From: Escherichia coli
GTDB taxonomy: Bacteria > Pseudomonadota > Gammaproteobacteria > Enterobacterales > Enterobacteriaceae
NCBI RefSeq assembly: GCF_030013595.1
Contig: NZ_CP122768.1
Length of the DNA stretch: 64,000 bases
Reading direction: 5' to 3' (one strand)
The position numbers and the translations under genes were made by a program. Of the stretch, positions 2,288 to 25,522 are shown in pieces; within the stretch, counting starts at the first letter, position 1, and every line of letters starts with the position of its first letter. The notes under the pieces are model-generated. The model was not told where the DNA came from and ran no database searches. It saw nothing but the letters and a program-made list of their open reading frames with translations.

Positions 2288-2657
2288 ATTTCACATGAAA
2301 AATTTTTTGTAGCCCCTCCATCAAAGAAAATCGCTGCCTTTATCAAAAACATTTCGAAATTGTCAGCAACTTAACGTCCCCCCACCCCAACAGTAAAATT
2401 GATCCCACTAGCTCAAGTGAAAGTCACCCCGTAACATCCTGTTGATACCCAGCGCCTGCGCTTTCGCTCTTACAGCATAACAAGAACGATCGATCCCCCA
2501 TATGCTTTCTACCGTCAACGTGCCTACACACTGACCTGAGTGCCATGATTTCCCTCATGCATAACCTGTTCACCGAATATCTCTCGAAAACCATTCTGGT
2601 AAAACGCCAGTACGCGCTGCATAGCTTCGCTCCTCCGACACTCGCGACAGATTATGT

Positions 2658-2999
2658 TCAGACGCCTGTCATAGCGGCGTATTTCTCCGTCTGGTAATGA
2701 ATAAACCAGGTCCGGGTCGCTCTTTTTTTCACTGCTGCTTTCGACATCTTTTTGCGGGCCTTTATCCAGTCCTTACGTGCCTGTTCAGACGGAAATAACC
2801 CGTAGCCGGAGTTGTATAAATCGCCACTGGCAACCAGCTCTCTGGCAAGAACACTCATCAGATACCTTGTCGCACCTGTCTTAGCTTCCAGTTGTCGTAA
2901 CGTCTCGCGCCCACTCTGGTGCACGAGCTCAACAACCTTCCCCTTAATTTTTTCCCGCTCTTCTTGTGTAAATACTTTTGCCATAAGCGCCTCCGGCAA
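2658..2999 (-). CDS. phage hypothetical protein
   Basis: 113-aa ORF directly downstream of and co-directional with the replication-module genes; no recognisable motif. Confidence 0.45.
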   Translation of the reverse strand: MPEALMAKVFTQEEREKIKGKVVELVHQSGRETLRQLEAKTGATRYLMSVLARELVASGDLYNSGYGLFPSEQARKDWIKARKKMSKAAVKKRATRTWFIHYQTEKYAAMTGV

Positions 3000-3770
3000 T
3001 CACTTTTCCGATGCAACATGGCGGGAAGAATCAGTAATCTGTCGTACAATATCCCTGTGCTTGTTCAACTCACGCAGCGCGGCGCAGACACGCTCCCACT
3101 TCTGGGCATGACTTTTCGCCCGGCGCAGTTCGCGGTTTGCCATATGCAGCGATGGTAAAATCAGGCCATCAGCTCGTGTTTCAGTGAACGATGGCAGCGA
3201 CTGCACAATGTCCGCCACAGTTTCTGTTTTAATATCTTCCTGTGTTGCAGCTTCCTGTACTGGTAACGCAACACTTGCTGGCTGAGGAAAGGCTTTACCA
3301 TCAGTTTCCGCTACCAATGCAGCTTTCGGCTCTGCTGGTAAATTATCGCCCGGTATGCAGTAGCGAAATTTACCGTTCTGGTTTACGCGTGCCAGCCGCC
3401 CCGTTGCGGTTACTACCGCCAGCGTGGAAGCAACCTTGCGAGTGCTGACACCGAACTTACCCGCCAGTTCCTCACACGTTTTAGCTCCCTCCTGACCGAT
3501 AAACTCAATCATCATGTCAGCGGTAACTTTTCGTTCGACCTCCCTGGTTAGCACATCCTGTACTTCAGATTGTGCTGGCTGCTCTTCGGCTACCCCTGAT
3601 TCACCTTCGCCAGCCACACGCCAGGTGTATACGCTTTTATCAACGAAGCCAGCCTTTTTCAGTTCCCACAGCTCGTTCAGTACTTCTTCACGACTGATAT
3701 CAAGTCGCGCAGCCAGCTCTACCGACGTGGCTTTTCCCATCGCTTTCAGTGCGTCAAAAACGGTCTCCAT
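3000..3770 (-). CDS. phage DNA-binding protein, winged-helix-like (YdaW-position gene, appears full length)
   Basis: ORF 3000..3821; likely start at internal Met [30 protein letters not shown] (HTH-like); follows the ydaV-like gene. Confidence 0.5.
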
Positions 3771-3792
3771 TAAAATTTCCTCCCGGTAAAAA

Positions 3793-4539
3793 TTACTTCT
3801 CAATACCTGGCTGACCAACATTCGGGCGCCAGCTCTCCCAGTTAAAATTCACCCAGCGCCCGCCGTTCATGGTCATGCGGTCCATAATCCGCTCGCCGAG
3901 CAGCGTTTTCATGGCCTCATAGTTCAGGTTTGTCAGCATTCCCACGCTGCGCATCGACGCTGTCCGGCGATCAACAATCTGGTGCAGTACCACCTGCTCG
4001 TTTTTCGTCTCGCGCTGAATGCCAATTTCATCAAGAACCAGCAGATCCACTTCGCACAGTTCCCGCAAAAATTTTTCGCCTGATTGCCCGTCGTCATAGC
4101 TGGCGTGTAGAGCACTCATAACATCAGCCACGGTAACCACAATCACTGTCTGGCCATCTTTCAGCAGGCGATTCCCGATAGCCGCCGCTAAGTGGTTTTT
4201 CCCGGTACCAGGTTTTCCGCTGAATGCGAAATTTGTGCATCCGGTCATCAGTTCATCGGCGATGGATTTCGCCTGGCTCAGCGCGTATCGCTGGTCGTCA
4301 TTCTGCACCTGGTAATTCGCAAACGAGCACTTGCGGTGCAACGGCTGGATGCCGGAGCGATTCAGAATTTTTTCCACCCGCAACTGACGATTCTGGCGGT
4401 TGATCTCCTCGCAACGCTTCTGGCCTTCTGCAAGTTGCCACTCGCGCCACTCGTCCACTGTTCGGTATGGCGCGGTTACATGCTGCGGAGCCAGCTTACG
4501 GATGCGTTCAAGAACACCGCCTGTCGCAATATTTTTCAT
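3793..4539 (-). CDS. ydaV: Rac prophage DnaC/IstB-like replication ATPase (helicase loader)
   Basis: 248 aa; Walker [16 protein letters not shown] and DnaC-like layout; matches remembered YdaV length. Confidence 0.85.
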
Positions 4540-4545
4540 GCTTCG

Positions 4546-5430
4546 TTACCCCCTGAAGCCTGGTGGGATCGCACTGTCCGGAAACGAGACGGTGTTAACC
4601 TGTCGAAGCAACGTCTCAGGCCGAACGCCTTTCGGCGCGAACAAGCCCTGGTATTCATGGGCAATGCTGTGTCTAATCACCTGCTCAGGGGTAAAACCCT
4701 GCTGGCGGAATTTTTCCAGCTCCCGTATCGCCCCGTTAGCGCCCTGCTCCGTTCGAATCGGTTTTCGCAATGCCTGCCTGAATTGAACCCACTCATGCCA
4801 GAGTGTTTCCGGCAACCACTCAGGCAGAGCAACTGACAACGGGTCGAATTTTTTAGTCGCTCGTTTTTGGTGAGGGAGATTTAGAGGGAGATCAGTATTT
4901 ATATCTTCCTCTTCCTCTTCCTCTTCCTCTTCCTCTTCCTCTGGTAACGCTTTTTGATCCGTTTGTGTAACGCTGGCAGCGTTACCTTTTCGTTTCAGTT
5001 CACGTATTTTTGTTACTCGCTCGTTTGTAACCGCCCGTTTTTTTGAGCTTTTTCCGTTATGACGTTCAAAGTTAGGTAGCGAAAGCCCACCGTCATTTTC
5101 GACCAGCCATCCAACCTGAATTAGCGCATCAGCAAAACCAGCCATAAAAGTGATGCGATCTATTGCACTTTTTGTAACGCTGCGAGCGTTACACTCTACG
5201 TTACCGTCTATCATTTGTTGATCCGCCCATACCCAGAAGCGAATGACTTTCCCTAATGCGGCATCTGGATCAATATTCAGAATCTCAGCAAGCCTGAATA
5301 TTTCCGGCTTATCCGGCGTAATAACCTCGAGCTTTATCCAGTTTGAAGCCATATTGTTTTCACCTTGTAACGCTGTGAGCGTTACATTTAACTGATACCG
5401 AACAAAACAGTCCGGCACGATTAATTTCAA
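4546..5430 (-). CDS. ydaU: Rac prophage replication-initiation-like protein with internal poly-Glu tract
   Basis: 294-aa ORF in YdaU position; contains 12 consecutive Glu encoded by a hexanucleotide repeat. Confidence 0.8.
   Translation of the reverse strand: MKLIVPDCFVRYQLNVTLTALQGENNMASNWIKLEVITPDKPEIFRLAEILNIDPDAALGKVIRFWVWADQQMIDGNVECNARSVTKSAIDRITFMAGFADALIQVGWLVENDGGLSLPNFERHNGKSSKKRAVTNERVTKIRELKRKGNAASVTQTDQKALPEEEEEEEEEEEEDINTDLPLNLPHQKRATKKFDPLSVALPEWLPETLWHEWVQFRQALRKPIRTEQGANGAIRELEKFRQQGFTPEQVIRHSIAHEYQGLFAPKGVRPETLLRQVNTVSFPDSAIPPGFRG
4905..4940. repeat. perfect hexanucleotide tandem repeat (CTTCCT)x6 on + strand, encoding poly-Glu in ydaU-like gene
   Basis: Read directly: cttcct repeated six times. 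Confidence 0.9.
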
Positions 5431-5853
5431 TCAATGCACTACAACAGAATCGTCGGACGCTCCACCACCGCTGAAATGTGCTTTCCGGTAAACGGCCTGG
5501 ACTGCATCATCATGCGCATCAATTGCCGTACTCAACGCTTCCTGCGCCGCCAGTAATGCACGGCGTTCCAGGGTATCGAAGATGCAGAGTCGATGACGCA
5601 GCTCCCGCGGAAGGATTGCCAGAATTGCTGGGATCAGCTTCTGAATTTTTTCCCTTTGCGCTTCCGTTTCACCTTTTAACCAACGATGATAGATATTCTG
5701 CTGATTGTTCCAGTCCCTGCCTGGTACCAAGGGCAATTCGCCGTCCCCCTGGCGCAGATATTCTTCAGTAATTGCATTGGCTACCCATGCCTGCCCTTTT
5801 TCAGCGGCCAGGGCTAACAGCACTGATTCAATGTGCTCATGCCTGATTTTCAT
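5431..5853 (-). CDS. ydaT: Rac prophage protein YdaT-like
   Basis: 140-aa ORF in conserved position and of matching length to K-12 YdaT. Confidence 0.8.
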   Translation of the reverse strand: MKIRHEHIESVLLALAAEKGQAWVANAITEEYLRQGDGELPLVPGRDWNNQQNIYHRWLKGETEAQREKIQKLIPAILAILPRELRHRLCIFDTLERRALLAAQEALSTAIDAHDDAVQAVYRKAHFSGGGASDDSVVVH

Positions 5854-6139
5854 GAATCAACTCCTGTGCATTTTGTGTGTTAGCTTTACATCCAACAGGT
5901 AAACCATCGGTCGGATTCGGGTAGATATCAGGCCGAAGTTCATGAGGTGTAACCTCGAAATTCGTAGCCTCCGCGATACGCAATACCTTTTCGGGGCTTA
6001 ACTGACTACGGCCAGTAGCTACGAGGCTAATCATTGATTGCGAACAACCAGCGAGTGCAGCCAAACAAGACTGTCGTACACGATTTTTTTTCAAATATTC
6101 ATCTAATGTCATAAGGGTCACCTTAGTAATGCCTGTCAA
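5837..6139 (-). CDS. ydaS: Cro-like HTH regulator YdaS-like
   Basis: 100-aa ORF divergent from racR; HTH segment QSCLAALAGCSQSMISLVATG; start may be the internal Met (MTLDEYL). Confidence 0.8.
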   Translation of the reverse strand: MTGITKVTLMTLDEYLKKNRVRQSCLAALAGCSQSMISLVATGRSQLSPEKVLRIAEATNFEVTPHELRPDIYPNPTDGLPVGCKANTQNAQELIHENQA

Positions 6140-6216
6140 AATATTAACTATATTAATTTAAATGATCAATACCTATATCAGTTTGAGATTATGAGTTGTG
6201 TTCATAAGATGGTGGT

Positions 6217-6681
6217 ATGAGAAGAAAACGCGAAGAAATCGCATCGCCAGAAGCTACGCAGCGTCTGCGCGCAGTCTGGGATGCCAAAAAAAGAGAGCTC
6301 AAACTGACTCAGGAGCTTGCTGCTGAGCTAATGGGCTTTGAGACTCAATCCACAGTTAGCCACTATCTCAACGGAAAGGCTCCACTAAACACTGATGCAG
6401 CATTAAAATTCGCTGTATTACTAAGAGTTAAGCCTGAAGAGTTGAGGCCTGATTTAGCTGATCTGATGAATTACGTCCGTTCCTCAGGAACTTATGACGA
6501 AAGTTTCGAAGGAGAAGGTTGGCGGATGGTTAACAAGCAACAAGCTGATTTACTGGATCTTTTTGAAATCCTACCCGAATCAGAAAAAGCAAAACTAATC
6601 GAAAGGCTTAAAGGTCAGAATGAACTCTACAAAGAAGCGTTTGAAAAGATGCTGGCAGCTCAGAAACGCATGAAGAAATAG
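6217..6681 (+). CDS. racR: Rac prophage repressor (CI-like HTH)
   Basis: 154-aa ORF with HTH (TQELAAELMGFETQSTVSHYLNG), divergent from ydaS. Confidence 0.8.
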   Translation: MRRKREEIASPEATQRLRAVWDAKKRELKLTQELAAELMGFETQSTVSHYLNGKAPLNTDAALKFAVLLRVKPEELRPDLADLMNYVRSSGTYDESFEGEGWRMVNKQQADLLDLFEILPESEKAKLIERLKGQNELYKEAFEKMLAAQKRMKK

Positions 6682-6701
6682 CTCCCGTAACCTCGTAACT
6701 A

Positions 6702-6727
6702 AACCGCCATTTTTGGCGGTTTTTTTG
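6702..6727 (+). terminator. rho-independent terminator after racR
   Basis: Hairpin ccgcca-tttt-tggcgg followed by a T-run. Confidence 0.65.
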
Positions 6728-6916
6728 TCCCCTCTGCACCCTCACCTTTCTTTTTTATCAAAAAAAACACTAAAAATTTCATTACGATAGTACATTTTTA
6801 TCAATAAAATGCATATTTGTGTTGATCACTTATATGAATATAACTAATATTATTGCAGAAGCAGCACGGCGCTGTAGGTTTTAGTTCCGCCACCCGGCGT
6901 TAAAGGGAGAGATAAA

Positions 6917-7051
6917 ATGGTGCATTACGAAGTAGTTCAGTATTTGATGGATTGTTACGGCATCACTTACAGCCAGGCTGTACAGGCTCTACGCAGCAAC
7001 GACTGGGATCTCTGGCAGGCAGAAGCCTCTATCCGCAACAACAAGATGTGA
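6917..7051 (+). CDS. ydaG: Rac prophage small protein YdaG
   Basis: 44-aa ORF MVHYEVVQYLMDCYGITYSQAVQALRSNDWDLWQAEASIRNNKM, near-identical to remembered K-12 YdaG; GGGAGAG Shine-Dalgarno. Confidence 0.7.
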   Translation: MVHYEVVQYLMDCYGITYSQAVQALRSNDWDLWQAEASIRNNKM

Positions 7052-7062
7052 GGGTTTCCAAA

Positions 7063-7215
7063 ATGCAAAAAATCGACCTCGGCAACAACGAATCCCTAGT
7101 GTGTGGCGTGTTCCCCAACCAGGATGGAACGTTCACCGCCATGACTTATACCAAAAGCAAGACATTCAAAACTGAAACGGGCGCACGTCGCTGGCTTGCC
7201 AGAAATACTTGCTGA
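7063..7215 (+). CDS. ydaF: Rac prophage small protein YdaF
   Basis: 50-aa ORF MQKIDLGNNESLVCGVFPNQDGTFTAMTYTKSKTFKTE..., matches remembered YdaF. Confidence 0.7.
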   Translation: MQKIDLGNNESLVCGVFPNQDGTFTAMTYTKSKTFKTETGARRWLARNTC

Positions 7216-7462
7216 TCCATTATTTGGATTAATTCAATATTCTCGCTGTAGGGGTATAGCCGAGGCCACCAAAGCCCGGAGGTGGTGAAATAAAACCGGG
7301 CGCAACACGAAGGCGCATTTCCGATATCCATAAAGAGTCGGTTTTGTCTGTTAAATTTAAATGGTGGGAGTGCTCCTCCGGTTGTAAATAACGACATTGC
7401 TGTGTGTAGTCTTGGCGGCATCAGTTTTTTCTTGAAGTTCGGCTGATGTCCGCCCTTTTTAA

Positions 7463-7630
7463 AGTGAATTTTGTGATGCGGTGAATGCGGCTCAGCGCAC
7501 GCGGAACAGTTAAAAAAGTGATCGGTACTCTGTATTTGTTTTATGGAGTTGGTTTCCCTGTATTCCGGCGTTAATTGTTAACTGGTTAACGTCACCTGGA
7601 GGCACCAGGCACCGCATCACAAAATTCACT
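7463..7630. repeat. 21-bp perfect inverted repeat (AGTGAATTTTGTGATGCGGTG at 7463..7483, reverse complement at 7610..7630) flanking a 126-bp spacer in a non-coding gap
   Basis: Read directly from sequence. Confidence 0.85.
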
Positions 7631-7652
7631 TAGTAACCAAGAAGAGAATTAT

Positions 7653-7925
7653 ATGCAAGAGATAAGTTTTGAAATAACAGCAAAAGATGTACAGGTTAAG
7701 CCCGATTACAATCAAAAATTATGTATTGAAGTCAATGGCGTGAAGTTATCAGACCTGATTGATTCAGTTGAAGATAACGACGCTATTATTGAAATGGTTG
7801 GAGCCGAAGAAATAGCAGAATACTTTTCAACAGAGGGGCGTCTTCATGAGCTTCTGGAAAAATTTTCATATCAGGATATCGCTACATTTCTGGAAATTAA
7901 TGGTTATAAAGTTACCGAGGAATAA
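7653..7925 (+). CDS. hypothetical small strongly acidic protein (prophage early-region gene)
   Basis: 90-aa ORF; about 21 Asp/Glu versus about 8 basic residues by my count; not recognisable as kilR or sieB. Confidence 0.5.
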   Translation: MQEISFEITAKDVQVKPDYNQKLCIEVNGVKLSDLIDSVEDNDAIIEMVGAEEIAEYFSTEGRLHELLEKFSYQDIATFLEINGYKVTEE

Positions 7926-7943
7926 AGTAGCTCAGGTGGCGTT

Positions 7944-8153
7944 ATGGAACGTAATCATCTAACAGCTATCAGTGCCGCACAGAGTAAATTCGCCATCGCT
8001 GTATTTTTACAGGATGAAGAAATGTTTGAGCAGGCCATTATTCAGTTTGCAATTGCGACCGGGAGTAAAATAAATGAACACTTTGTTCGCTCTTGTCATG
8101 ACCGTTTTTCTGACATCAGGCGAAACTCAGGATGTTGTTACCGGAATTTATAA
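7944..8153 (+). CDS. hypothetical small protein (uncertain; overlaps next ORF in another frame)
   Basis: 69-aa ORF with AGGTGG Shine-Dalgarno 6 nt upstream; overlaps 8074..8310 by 80 nt. Confidence 0.3.
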   Translation: MERNHLTAISAAQSKFAIAVFLQDEEMFEQAIIQFAIATGSKINEHFVRSCHDRFSDIRRNSGCCYRNL

Positions 8154-8310
8154 CTCCGAATCTGAATGCAAGGCCGCAGCTATTGAGCAAAAAGTAGCTG
8201 GTGAATGTTTCCCTGTTGAGAAATTTATCCGGCCTGTAGATGAAGAAATTCCCGCAGGCCTCACAGGAGAAAATCATGAAAATAAAATGTGGTTACCACC
8301 TTTGCAATAA
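8074..8310 (+). CDS. hypothetical small protein with hydrophobic N-terminus (kilR-position gene, identity not confirmed)
   Basis: 78-aa ORF with GGGAG Shine-Dalgarno; N-terminal MNTLFALVMTVFLTSG is signal-peptide or TM-like. Confidence 0.4.
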   Translation: MNTLFALVMTVFLTSGETQDVVTGIYNSESECKAAAIEQKVAGECFPVEKFIRPVDEEIPAGLTGENHENKMWLPPLQ

Positions 8311-8440
8311 AGACGTTGAAGAAAGCAAAACCATTAAAAGACCACTTCATTTCATGCGTGGAGTTATCCCAACGACGGAAATGAAAAAATATTGTAGTGA
8401 AAATTGTGCCGAAAAAGACCAGATGGCACACGAACTTTAA
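8276..8440 (+). CDS. ydaE: Rac prophage small Cys-rich protein YdaE
   Basis: 54-aa ORF MKIKCGYHLCNKDVEESKTIKRPLHFMRGVIPTTEMKKYCSENCAEKDQMAHEL with AGGAGAAAA Shine-Dalgarno. Confidence 0.7.
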   Translation: MKIKCGYHLCNKDVEESKTIKRPLHFMRGVIPTTEMKKYCSENCAEKDQMAHEL

Positions 8441-8514
8441 TTAACTGACTATTCGAAACTGAATTTATGCCAGAAATGGCAGGGATTCGCTCAACCTTAA
8501 TTAAGGAGAAAAAC

Positions 8515-12411: not shown

Positions 12412-12618
12412 ATGACAAAAACTTTGAGATATGACGATGTTAAACCATGTCCGTTTTGTGGTTGTCCATCAGTAACGGTGAAAGACATTTCAGGATATTA
12501 CCGGGCAAAATGCAACGGATGCGAATCCCGAACTGGCTATGGTGGAAGTGAAAAAGAAGCGCTCGAAAGATGGAATAAACGAACCACTGAAAATATTAAT
12601 GGAGGCGTTCATGTATAA
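12412..12618 (+). CDS. ralR: restriction alleviation protein RalR (Lar)
   Basis: MTKTLRYDDVKPCPFCGCPSVTVK... matches remembered RalR. Confidence 0.85.
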   Translation: MTKTLRYDDVKPCPFCGCPSVTVKDISGYYRAKCNGCESRTGYGGSEKEALERWNKRTTENINGGVHV

Positions 12619-12799
12619 AATTACCGCTACAATTGAAAAGGAAGGTGGCACTCCTACTAACTGGACAAGATATTCAAAATCTAAACTAACGAAATCAGAA
12701 TGCGAAAAAATGCTCTCAGGTAAAAAAGAAGCAGGCGTTTCCAGAGAGCAGAAAGTAAAACTGATAAATTTTAATTGCGAGAAACTTCAGTCCTCGTGA
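12611..12799 (+). CDS. ydaC: Rac prophage small protein YdaC (RcbA)
   Basis: 62-aa ORF MYKITATIEKEGGTPTNW... with GGAGG Shine-Dalgarno; overlaps ralR stop. Confidence 0.7.
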   Translation: MYKITATIEKEGGTPTNWTRYSKSKLTKSECEKMLSGKKEAGVSREQKVKLINFNCEKLQSS

Positions 12800-17100: not shown

Positions 17101-17222
17101 AAAAAAAAGCCGACTCATCAAAGTCGGCGTCGTACGAATCAATTGTGCTATGCAGTAATTCAAAAAAGGAAGTAAGACAATATGGAGCGCAACGCCCATC
17201 GCTTGACGTTGCATTCACCTGC
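17101..17222 (-). ncRNA. fnrS: FnrS small RNA
   Basis: Reverse complement begins GCAGGTGAATGCAACGTCAAGCGATGGGCG and ends in terminator hairpin GCCGACTTTGATGAGTCGGC plus U-run; matches remembered FnrS, located between zntB and dbpA. Confidence 0.8.
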
Positions 17223-19749: not shown

Positions 19750-21074
19750 TGAATCCCCTAATGATTTTGGTAAAAATCATTAAGTTAAGGTGGATACACA
19801 TCTTGTCATATGATCAAATGGTTTCGCGAAAAATCAATAATCAGACAACAAGATGTGCGAACTCGATATTTTACACGACTCTCTTTACCAATTCTGCCCC
19901 GAATTACACTTAAAACGACTCAACAGCTTAACGTTGGCTTGCCACGCATTACTTGACTGTAAAACTCTCACTCTTACCGAACTTGGCCGTAACCTGCCAA
20001 CCAAAGCGAGAACAAAACATAACATCAAACGAATCGACCGATTGTTAGGTAATCGTCACCTCCACAAAGAGCGACTCGCTGTATACCGTTGGCATGCTAG
20101 CTTTATCTGTTCGGGCAATACGATGCCCATTGTACTTGTTGACTGGTCTGATATTCGTGAGCAAAAACGACTTATGGTATTGCGAGCTTCAGTCGCACTA
20201 CACGGTCGTTCTGTTACTCTTTATGAGAAAGCGTTCCCGCTTTCAGAGCAATGTTCAAAGAAAGCTCATGACCAATTTCTAGCCGACCTTGCGAGCATTC
20301 TACCGAGTAACACCACACCGCTCATTGTCAGTGATGCTGGCTTTAAAGTGCCATGGTATAAATCCGTTGAGAAGCTGGGTTGGTACTGGTTAAGTCGAGT
20401 AAGAGGAAAAGTACAATATGCAGACCTAGGAGCGGAAAACTGGAAACCTATCAGCAACTTACATGATATGTCATCTAGTCACTCAAAGACTTTAGGCTAT
20501 AAGAGGCTGACTAAAAGCAATCCAATCTCATGCCAAATTCTATTGTATAAATCTCGCTCTAAAGGCCGAAAAAATCAGCGCTCGACACGGACTCATTGTC
20601 ACCACCCGTCACCTAAAATCTACTCAGCGTCGGCAAAGGAGCCATGGGTTCTAGCAACTAACTTACCTGTTGAAATTCGAACACCCAAACAACTTGTTAA
20701 TATCTATTCGAAGCGAATGCAGATTGAAGAAACCTTCCGAGACTTGAAAAGTCCTGCCTACGGACTAGGCCTACGCCATAGCCGAACGAGCAGCTCAGAG
20801 CGTTTTGATATCATGCTGCTAATCGCCCTGATGCTTCAACTAACATGTTGGCTTGCGGGCGTTCATGCTCAGAAACAAGGTTGGGACAAGCACTTCCAGG
20901 CTAACACAGTCAGAAATCGAAACGTACTCTCAACAGTTCGCTTAGGCATGGAAGTTTTGCGGCATTCTGGCTACACAATAACAAGGGAAGACTTACTCGT
21001 GGCTGCAACCCTACTAGCTCAAAATTTATTCACACATGGTTACGCTTTGGGGAAATTATGAGGGGATCTCTCAG
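19746..21074 (+). mobile_element. IS10 insertion sequence, complete (1329 bp), outside end towards dgcM
   Basis: Begins CTGATGAATCCCCTAATGATTTTGGTAAAAATCATTAAG and ends ...GGGGAAATTATGAGGGGATCTCTCAG; length and ends match remembered IS10. Confidence 0.95.
19853..21061 (+). CDS. IS10 transposase
   Basis: 402-aa ORF MCELDILHDSLYQFCPELHLKRLNSL...HGYALGKL matching remembered IS10 transposase. Confidence 0.95.
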   Translation: MCELDILHDSLYQFCPELHLKRLNSLTLACHALLDCKTLTLTELGRNLPTKARTKHNIKRIDRLLGNRHLHKERLAVYRWHASFICSGNTMPIVLVDWSDIREQKRLMVLRASVALHGRSVTLYEKAFPLSEQCSKKAHDQFLADLASILPSNTTPLIVSDAGFKVPWYKSVEKLGWYWLSRVRGKVQYADLGAENWKPISNLHDMSSSHSKTLGYKRLTKSNPISCQILLYKSRSKGRKNQRSTRTHCHHPSPKIYSASAKEPWVLATNLPVEIRTPKQLVNIYSKRMQIEETFRDLKSPAYGLGLRHSRTSSSERFDIMLLIALMLQLTCWLAGVHAQKQGWDKHFQANTVRNRNVLSTVRLGMEVLRHSGYTITREDLLVAATLLAQNLFTHGYALGKL

Positions 21075-25426: not shown

Positions 25427-25522
25427 ACCGGTCACCAGGACCCCAGGCCGGATTTAAGACGAGGATGCACTGCTGTGTGTACTGTAGAGTCTGGCGGATG
25501 TAGACAGACTCTATTTTTTTAT
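25427..25522 (+). ncRNA. mcaS: McaS (IsrA) small RNA, probable
   Basis: 3' two-thirds matches remembered McaS including the terminator hairpin and U-run; the 5' end is approximate and looks different from my memory of K-12. Confidence 0.6.

Follow-up and report, generated by a model that had tools for sequence, protein, structure and literature searches.

A length-variable, frame-preserving hexanucleotide repeat in the replication-initiator gene of a Rac-like Escherichia coli prophage

The subject of this work is a perfect hexanucleotide repeat inside a prophage replication-initiator gene, found in a 64-kb stretch of Escherichia coli DNA (the window, meaning the whole stretch that was analyzed). 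The gene and its repeat are placed as follows:

4546-5352, minus strand: replication-initiator gene, 268 amino acids (aa), matching PHROG 2509, with a C-terminal third common to K-12 YdaU
4904-4942, minus strand: perfect hexanucleotide microsatellite, (TCTTCC)6.5 on the plus strand and (GAGGAA)6 in the sense of the gene
4906-4941, minus strand: 12 Glu codons (GAG-GAA x6), protein residues 138-149

The match to PHROG 2509, annotated as "replication initiation protein", runs end to end (E 6e-88), and a second family, PHROG 678 ("replication initiation O-like"), covers residues 77-242, from the last part of the N-terminal domain (but not that domain as a whole) through the linker to the C-terminal domain. 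No Pfam family scored above threshold for the window protein. We take the start of the 268-aa open reading frame (ORF) to be the ATG of MASNWIKLEV, from which the RefSeq homologues are also annotated; a program-made ORF list extends the frame to a TTG at 5430.

Within the 64-kb window, the tract is by far the strongest tandem array returned by Tandem Repeats Finder (period 6, 100% matches, score 78), and its plus-strand context is TATA-(TCTTCC)6-TCT-GGTAACGC. An earlier sequence-only reading of this DNA had reported six copies of CTTCCT at 4905-4940, encoding 12 consecutive Glu in the minus-strand ORF, and both statements are exact. The 36-mer is single-copy in the window, and none of 100 dinucleotide-preserving shuffles of the window gave a match to it with up to three mismatches. 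The minus-strand sequence of the tract is CCA (GAG GAA)x6 GAT, or Pro-Glu12-Asp; the Glu codons stand one base off the register of the (CTTCCT)6 units, which has no consequence. Its composition is 50% G+C. As a separate observation, two GATC sites, the target of Dam methylation, flank the repeat on either side at 4890-4893 and 4956-4959, and the GATC within GAT CAA AAA falls in a stretch that is invariant even at synonymous positions.

The sequence-only reading had also proposed that slippage would change the length of the tract without breaking the frame, and comparison across Rac-like prophages bears this out; the outcome that it had named as refuting, one copy number shared by all homologues, is clearly not what is seen. 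A 451-nt query matched 1,408 of 5,426 complete E. coli genomes, 680 of them with at least 80% coverage, and match spans depart from the query length by multiples of 6 nt. In an evenly spaced sample of the genome ranking, most spans correspond to three units. When four retrieved examples were aligned, every gap fell inside the repeat, leaving 4.5, 3.5, 3.5 and 2.5 units against 6.5 in the window, and one of the two 3.5-unit examples carries a C-to-T interruption. We then listed 126 loci, made up of the window, five E. coli loci and 120 IMG/VR loci (at least 120 being retrieved there with the invariant right flank as query). Full units in this list number 2 (n = 14), 3 (88), 4 (16), 5 (2), 6 (3), 7 (1) and 8 (2), making three units (six Glu) the commonest allele. 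All differences are of whole units, with no partial-unit ones; the unit counts allow for those loci in which the repeat ends with a T-to-A change. Point interruptions occur in 32 alleles, 31 of them with three units and one (L089) with five. At the protein level, initiators of 262, 264 and 266 aa are each found on 5-184 contigs.

Copy number also changes repeatedly on the same background. The 113 loci with complete 768-nt flanks fall into 72 flank haplotypes, and four haplotypes with identical 768-nt flanks carry more than one copy number. On the window's own flank haplotype, six units are present in the window and four in L001 and L016. Fitch parsimony on a neighbour-joining tree of the 113 flank sequences requires at least 26 length changes, and 30 pairs of these loci stand at most one substitution apart in their flanks yet have unequal copy number. 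One lineage holds alleles of 3, 5, 6, 6, 6, 7, 8 and 8 units, with several pairs near-identical over 1.7-3.7 kb of flank: L114 (five units) and L130 (six units) are separated by one gap and no substitution in roughly 3.7 kb of flank, and L108 (eight units) and L114 show no difference over 1.7 kb. Short alleles appear stable in clonal sets, where seven-member haplotype groups and several strain series have three units throughout. The tract shows three features by which a slippage-prone in-frame simple sequence repeat is recognized, namely a perfect repeat beyond chance, whole-unit alleles and recurrence on identical backgrounds. A phase-variable on/off contingency locus was considered and ruled out, because the 6-nt unit lies inside the coding region and the tract never shifts the frame.

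The longest alleles deserve separate treatment. Among the loci listed, intact genes in the first IMG/VR sample have two to four units, to which the window adds an intact gene with six, and complete genomes contributed intact five-unit alleles in strains DEC5E and OkiPb01713. Intact genes of the E. coli type encode 4-10 Glu, most commonly six; a variant with a 114-aa insertion reaches 10 Glu, and a divergent homologue of Klebsiella-phage type (50.7% identity, tblastn) is intact with 9, 11 and 13 Glu. A scan of IMG/VR for at least five units gave 11 loci, and the seven of these with at least six units all belong to a decaying lineage, while a pattern for at least six units hit one contig only among 241 million metagenome records. 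Disrupted genes were observed at L007, L108-L114, L130 and L217, the last being the eight-unit allele of E. coli 2013C-4974, where the gene is annotated as frameshifted. The frameshifts of the decaying lineage arise outside the repeat, in a nearby homopolymer and G-run. They consist of a 10-nt or 1-nt deletion at a 12-nt direct repeat/G-run just downstream of the tract, and the lineage also varies at an A7 homopolymer (A7, A8 and A10); the two sites correspond to 4872-4892 and 5038-5044 of the window. Long Glu runs may favour inactivation of the gene, or decay may permit expansion of the repeat, both being candidate readings. The 12-Glu allele of the window is unusually long; most likely, two units were recently gained on a haplotype whose other known copies have eight Glu.

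To place the Glu run in the protein, an AlphaFold2 model of the initiator was run with 31 homologues. It predicts two folded domains on either side of a low-confidence segment, as given here by confidence score (predicted local distance difference test, pLDDT):

5068-5322, minus strand: N-terminal folded domain, residues 11-95, modelled with confidence as four helices and two strands, winged-helix-like, presumed origin-binding
4858-5067, minus strand: predicted disordered linker, residues 96-165 (70 residues), pLDDT below 50
4612-4857, minus strand: C-terminal three-helix domain, residues 166-247, pLDDT above 90, of the YdaU C-terminal type and DnaT-C-terminal-like

The linker contains, in order, a basic stretch (KSSKKRAVTNERVTKIRELKRKG), the residues NAASVT, QKALP, the Glu12 run and DINTDLPLNLP. 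The suggestion in the sequence-only reading that the run is an acidic linker is in keeping with this model, which places the tract inside the 70-residue segment between the two domains. A Foldseek search of the model against the PDB gave nothing significant (best E 0.7), the weak matches all being winged-helix proteins. The N-terminal domain is also found in phages of Xanthomonas, Vibrio and Ralstonia. For the C-terminal domain, the family profile matches the DnaT C-terminal structures 6AEP (E 9e-5) and 2RU8 with E-values of 9e-5 to 5e-4, a range that extends to 1e-3 when 9ZBT is included. The relatives P0119 and P0120 pass the threshold of Pfam PF17948, below which the window protein alone stays, and the window protein scores E 0.0042 against the NCBIfam DnaT model, far short of its cut-off.

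Homologues are spread over E. coli, Shigella, Salmonella, Citrobacter, Klebsiella, Enterobacter, Yersinia, Serratia, Cronobacter and Buttiauxella. In each of the 31 aligned sequences from Enterobacterales, the most divergent at 52% identity, the conserved motif KALP (Q-K-x-L-P in the alignment) leads into a run of 4-12 acidic residues. Alternating GAG and GAA codons recur across genera, as expected if the run turns over by unit duplication and not by point mutation. The acidic run of Serratia is DEDEEEEED, with GAT codons, and at the position of the tract the Xanthomonas and Ralstonia phages show no repeat but mixed charged residues such as REEKRRED. From the model and the alignment, we infer that the acidic run serves as a flexible linker between the domains, with little constraint on its exact length. 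The junction of differing C-terminal modules, and that of the 114-aa insertion, lies just after the acidic run. The insertion variant is common (L004 at 1656-2030, L021 and L078; P0011-P0058, 374-380 aa), with the 114 aa placed in the linker right after DINTDL, and a Pfam search of the variant gave no match. The gene of this type in L004 is annotated as a split pseudogene. In one E. coli genome, a short match to this region overlaps a feature annotated as PD-(D/E)XK nuclease-like, which may possibly be the same element as the insertion.

The DNA around the repeat holds a second set of elements. The sequence GTAACGC-N5-GCGTTAC has three copies in the 64-kb window where zero are expected by chance, all in or at the initiator gene, and further half-sites accompany them (strand not assigned):

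5367-5385: palindrome 1, GTAACGC-TGTGA-GCGTTAC, directly upstream of the initiator ribosome-binding site (AAGGTGA)
5174-5192: palindrome 2, GTAACGC-TGCGA-GCGTTAC, encoding a low-confidence loop of the N-terminal domain, residues 52-57
4967-4985: palindrome 3, GTAACGC-TGGCA-GCGTTAC, 25 nt from the repeat and encoding the linker residues NAASVT
4944-4950: half-site GCGTTAC, two bases from the repeat
5012-5016 and 5027-5031: additional GTAAC/GTTAC

The half-site and the start of the repeat together read GCG TTA CCA GAG GAA, or Ala-Leu-Pro-Glu-Glu. In eight homologues with 52-100% protein identity, the three palindromes stand at the same places with fixed arms and spacers free to vary, and a GTTACC half-site adjoins the acidic tract in all eight. 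In the family of L126, palindrome 3 is read in another frame, giving VTLAAL versus NAASVT. Across 85 distinct gene sequences, the entropy of third codon positions is 0.13 in the arms, compared to 0.55 in the spacers and 0.50 elsewhere (p = 4e-5). In the same set, GATCAAAAAGCGTTACCAGAGGAAGAGGAA is essentially invariant at each position, and no variation, synonymous sites included, is present in the first two repeat units and the GATCAAAAAGCGTTACCA before them.

More distant relatives were also compared. A family-alignment search of IMG/VR gave close relatives only, and the DNA of distant homologues was retrieved protein by protein. Xanthomonas phage Olaya (L221) keeps the GTAACGC arms at gene position +148. 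Ralstonia phage Raharianne (L225), whose N-terminal domain is 41% identical, has GTAGACG-N5-CGTCTAC at +153 and +369, the same positions with different arms, and a Vibrio phage (L223) has TGTCACA-N7-TGTGACA at +357. In phage epsilon15, no perfect palindrome with 7-nt arms was found. The conservation of the arms, together with their change in the Ralstonia and Vibrio phages, marks the palindromes as DNA-level sites that vary together with the N-terminal domain. Judging by these comparisons, they are most probably binding sites of the initiator itself, acting as an origin and/or an autoregulatory operator. The published operator of YdaT is a different inverted repeat, TTGATT-N6-AATCAA, and YdaT was set aside as the palindrome binder. 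A consensus scan flags palindrome 3 and a T-rich run (4967-4985, plus strand) as terminator-like, antisense to the gene; the palindrome itself is most likely the cause of this flag.

The reading we favor, to which we would give a probability of roughly 0.8, takes the tract to be an in-frame coding microsatellite, prone to slippage, within the acidic and predicted disordered linker of a two-domain prophage initiator. The (GAGGAA)n and (TTCCTC)n strands would misalign by whole 6-nt units at replication, adding or removing Glu-Glu pairs with the frame kept. The linker would join the winged-helix-like, presumed origin-binding N-terminal domain to the DnaT-like C-terminal domain, which would presumably recruit the helicase via the adjacent DnaC-like YdaV, and length changes within the observed range would probably be tolerated as near-neutral.

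Several points weigh against this reading. Alleles of at least six units are rare and, besides the window and one metagenomic gene of Klebsiella-phage type, all lie in frameshifted genes, so that long tracts may be non-neutral. The loci were sampled unevenly, some of them from clonal sets, and part of the recurrent changes counted on the tree could be the product of recombination between alleles. The predicted disorder is a low-confidence call of AlphaFold from a 31-sequence alignment. Finally, given the synonymous-site invariance of GATCAAAAAGCGTTACCAGAGGAAGAGGAA, a constraint at the DNA level could also act on the first repeat units.

In one alternative, the tract would matter mainly as DNA, as the purine-rich flank of an intragenic origin of initiator-binding palindromes, with the Glu run as a by-product and the tract length setting the geometry of the origin or the ease of its opening. 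The confinement of the three palindromes to the initiator gene and the half-site adjoining the tract speak for it, as do the constancy of the sites in place and in their synonymous positions while spacers vary, the frame change of palindrome 3 in a relative, and the behavior of the Olaya and Raharianne arms. The invariance of the first two units and the sequence before them is a further argument, and phage lambda has the same order on the sense strand of gene O: sites, purine-rich tract, C-terminal domain. Nevertheless, a tract of 50% G+C is not an easily melted A+T-rich element. Steps of 6 bp turn the helix by about 200 degrees, yet intact genes have two to six units, which argues against a strict spacing role. 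The GAT codons of the Serratia run indicate that acidity is conserved there and not a pure purine strand, and in the Xanthomonas and Ralstonia phages the mixed charged stretch takes the place of the repeat. We consider it possible that the repeat itself acts as DNA, but less likely and on the whole doubtful. A triplex (H-DNA) structure was rejected on a hand check, as (GAGGAA)n is not the mirror repeat that a perfect triplex needs.

A bolder version, which we hold to be slightly more doubtful again, makes the repeat a working part of an undescribed kind of intragenic phage origin, in which the 7-5-7 palindromes would be recognized by the N-terminal domain and co-vary with it, and slippage would change origin firing or autoinhibition of the initiator. 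If this were true, prophages would gain a heritable but reversible setting of replication strength, and such palindromes would be written into the loop- and linker-coding parts of genes in phages of Enterobacterales, Xanthomonas and Ralstonia.

Selection could instead favor length switching itself, the repeat being an adaptive "tuning knob" by which the length or charge of the linker adjusts initiator activity and thereby prophage replication or induction; the neighbouring basic segment might, for example, be contested between DNA and the acidic run. The high mutability where backgrounds are identical and the strongly basic stretch next to the tract would suit this idea, as would an acidic run in all aligned family members and a perfect repeat structure kept across genera. 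Yet the distribution is sharply peaked at three units and short alleles are stable in clonal sets, a pattern closer to mutation-selection balance around an adequate length than to switching, and the most variable lineage is a decaying pseudogene, beyond selection at the protein level. We regard adaptive switching as improbable. A stable repeat, with copy numbers that differ only through artefacts of assembly or sequencing, is effectively refuted: assemblers can collapse repeats and many loci come from draft assemblies, but the tract, at 15-51 nt, is below sequencing-read length, and the differences appear in closed genomes of independent laboratories, in IMG/VR and in metagenome contigs, always as whole units, with the same alleles recurring in many records.

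The preferred reading, that of a coding microsatellite in a linker, sits within the following genomic setting:

3793-4539, minus strand: ydaV, DnaC-like helicase loader, directly downstream in the same operon, with a DUF1627 gene next
5431-5853, minus strand: ydaT, YdaT/CII-like regulator, directly upstream in the same operon
12617-12795, minus strand: RalA (antitoxin RNA of Rac), Rfam match
17105-17222, minus strand: FnrS, Rfam match
19791-19860, minus strand: RNA-OUT (IS10), Rfam match
25427-25522, plus strand: McaS, Rfam match

Because RalA, FnrS, McaS and others were matched, the window can be placed at the Rac locus on a chromosome of E. coli type. The 64-kb window has no tRNA genes. The complete E. 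coli genome closest to positions 2500-8500 is that of ETEC1732, from a pig, at 97.6%, with none higher, and the exact 268-aa initiator is not in a collection of 15 billion proteins, its 90% cluster having members of 262, 264 and 266 aa. The window therefore represents a prophage variant unrepresented in those sets. As for earlier work, a 2023 paper (PMC11014345) still gives the K-12 ydaUVW operon, at the same position, as of undetermined function, and a paper on the "Eru" replication module deals with other modules. The literature on ydaU, ydaV and oriJ gave no account of this protein, its repeat or an origin position.

The repeat is a real, ordinary hypermutable in-frame coding microsatellite, and its description puts on record a repeat that evolves fast and preserves the frame, in a prophage replication module that is very common. 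Its copy number could be a fine-scale marker for tracking Rac-like prophages. For annotators, protein lengths of 260-268 aa (374-380 aa with the insertion) should be read as alleles of one gene. The initiator family is widespread and experimentally uncharacterized, and the embedded palindromes predict both a replication start site and a target of the N-terminal domain. These palindromes, with the intragenic origin that they probably mark, are a more interesting part of the locus than the repeat.

Comparison with known systems helps to place each part. For the C-terminal domain, the single-stranded-DNA-binding domain of DnaT (primosomal protein I) is a candidate relative: the family profile matches it and a three-helix domain is predicted with high confidence, though the window protein alone stays below the Pfam and NCBIfam thresholds. 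Unlike DnaT, the window protein has an extra origin-binding-like N-terminal domain and an acidic linker.

The sequence-only reading had called the gene ydaU-like, which holds in part. The gene shares with YdaU of the K-12 Rac prophage its operon position between ydaT and ydaV and its C-terminal residues, some database records name window-type genes ydaU, and the two proteins are 61% identical over 179 aa, from the linker onward, with the last approximately 120 aa much more similar. The name does not extend to the N-terminal domain. K-12 YdaU has a DUF1376 domain there (PF07120, E 2.7e-26) and no poly-Glu run; in contrast, Pfam gives no DUF1376 match in the window initiator, whose N-terminal domain is unrelated to that of YdaU.

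The layout of the palindromes, as a putative origin, resembles that of the lambda origin inside gene O. Both systems have a two-domain initiator with dyad-symmetric DNA repeats within its own gene, and in both the sites, a purine-rich tract and the C-terminal domain follow in this order, with a point of module exchange just after. In lambda gene O, the iterons give way on the sense strand to a purine-rich, A+T-rich stretch coding for the linker between the domains. The differences are also clear. Lambda has four tandem iterons, whereas in the window three 7-5-7 palindromes are dispersed at intervals of about 200 bp, with half-sites in addition; the purine tract is A+T-rich in lambda and a 50% G+C microsatellite in the window; and the partner protein is lambda P in the former and a DnaC-like loader in the latter. 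Pfam gives no hit to the N-terminal family of lambda O in the window initiator.

The closest parallel for the repeat itself is with in-frame coding microsatellites, such as those used as variable-number tandem repeats (VNTRs) in multiple-locus VNTR analysis (MLVA) typing. The literature was searched for the hexamer in its six rotations, reverse complements excluded; only unrelated papers came up, none of them treating this locus as a typing marker, and a use in typing schemes may still exist. The window tract is like these microsatellites in its perfect short units and in whole-unit changes on identical backgrounds. It is also like them in the greater variability of longer pure tracts and in a unit that is a multiple of three, by which the frame is kept. 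It differs in its setting, a prophage replication gene rather than a surface or contingency gene.

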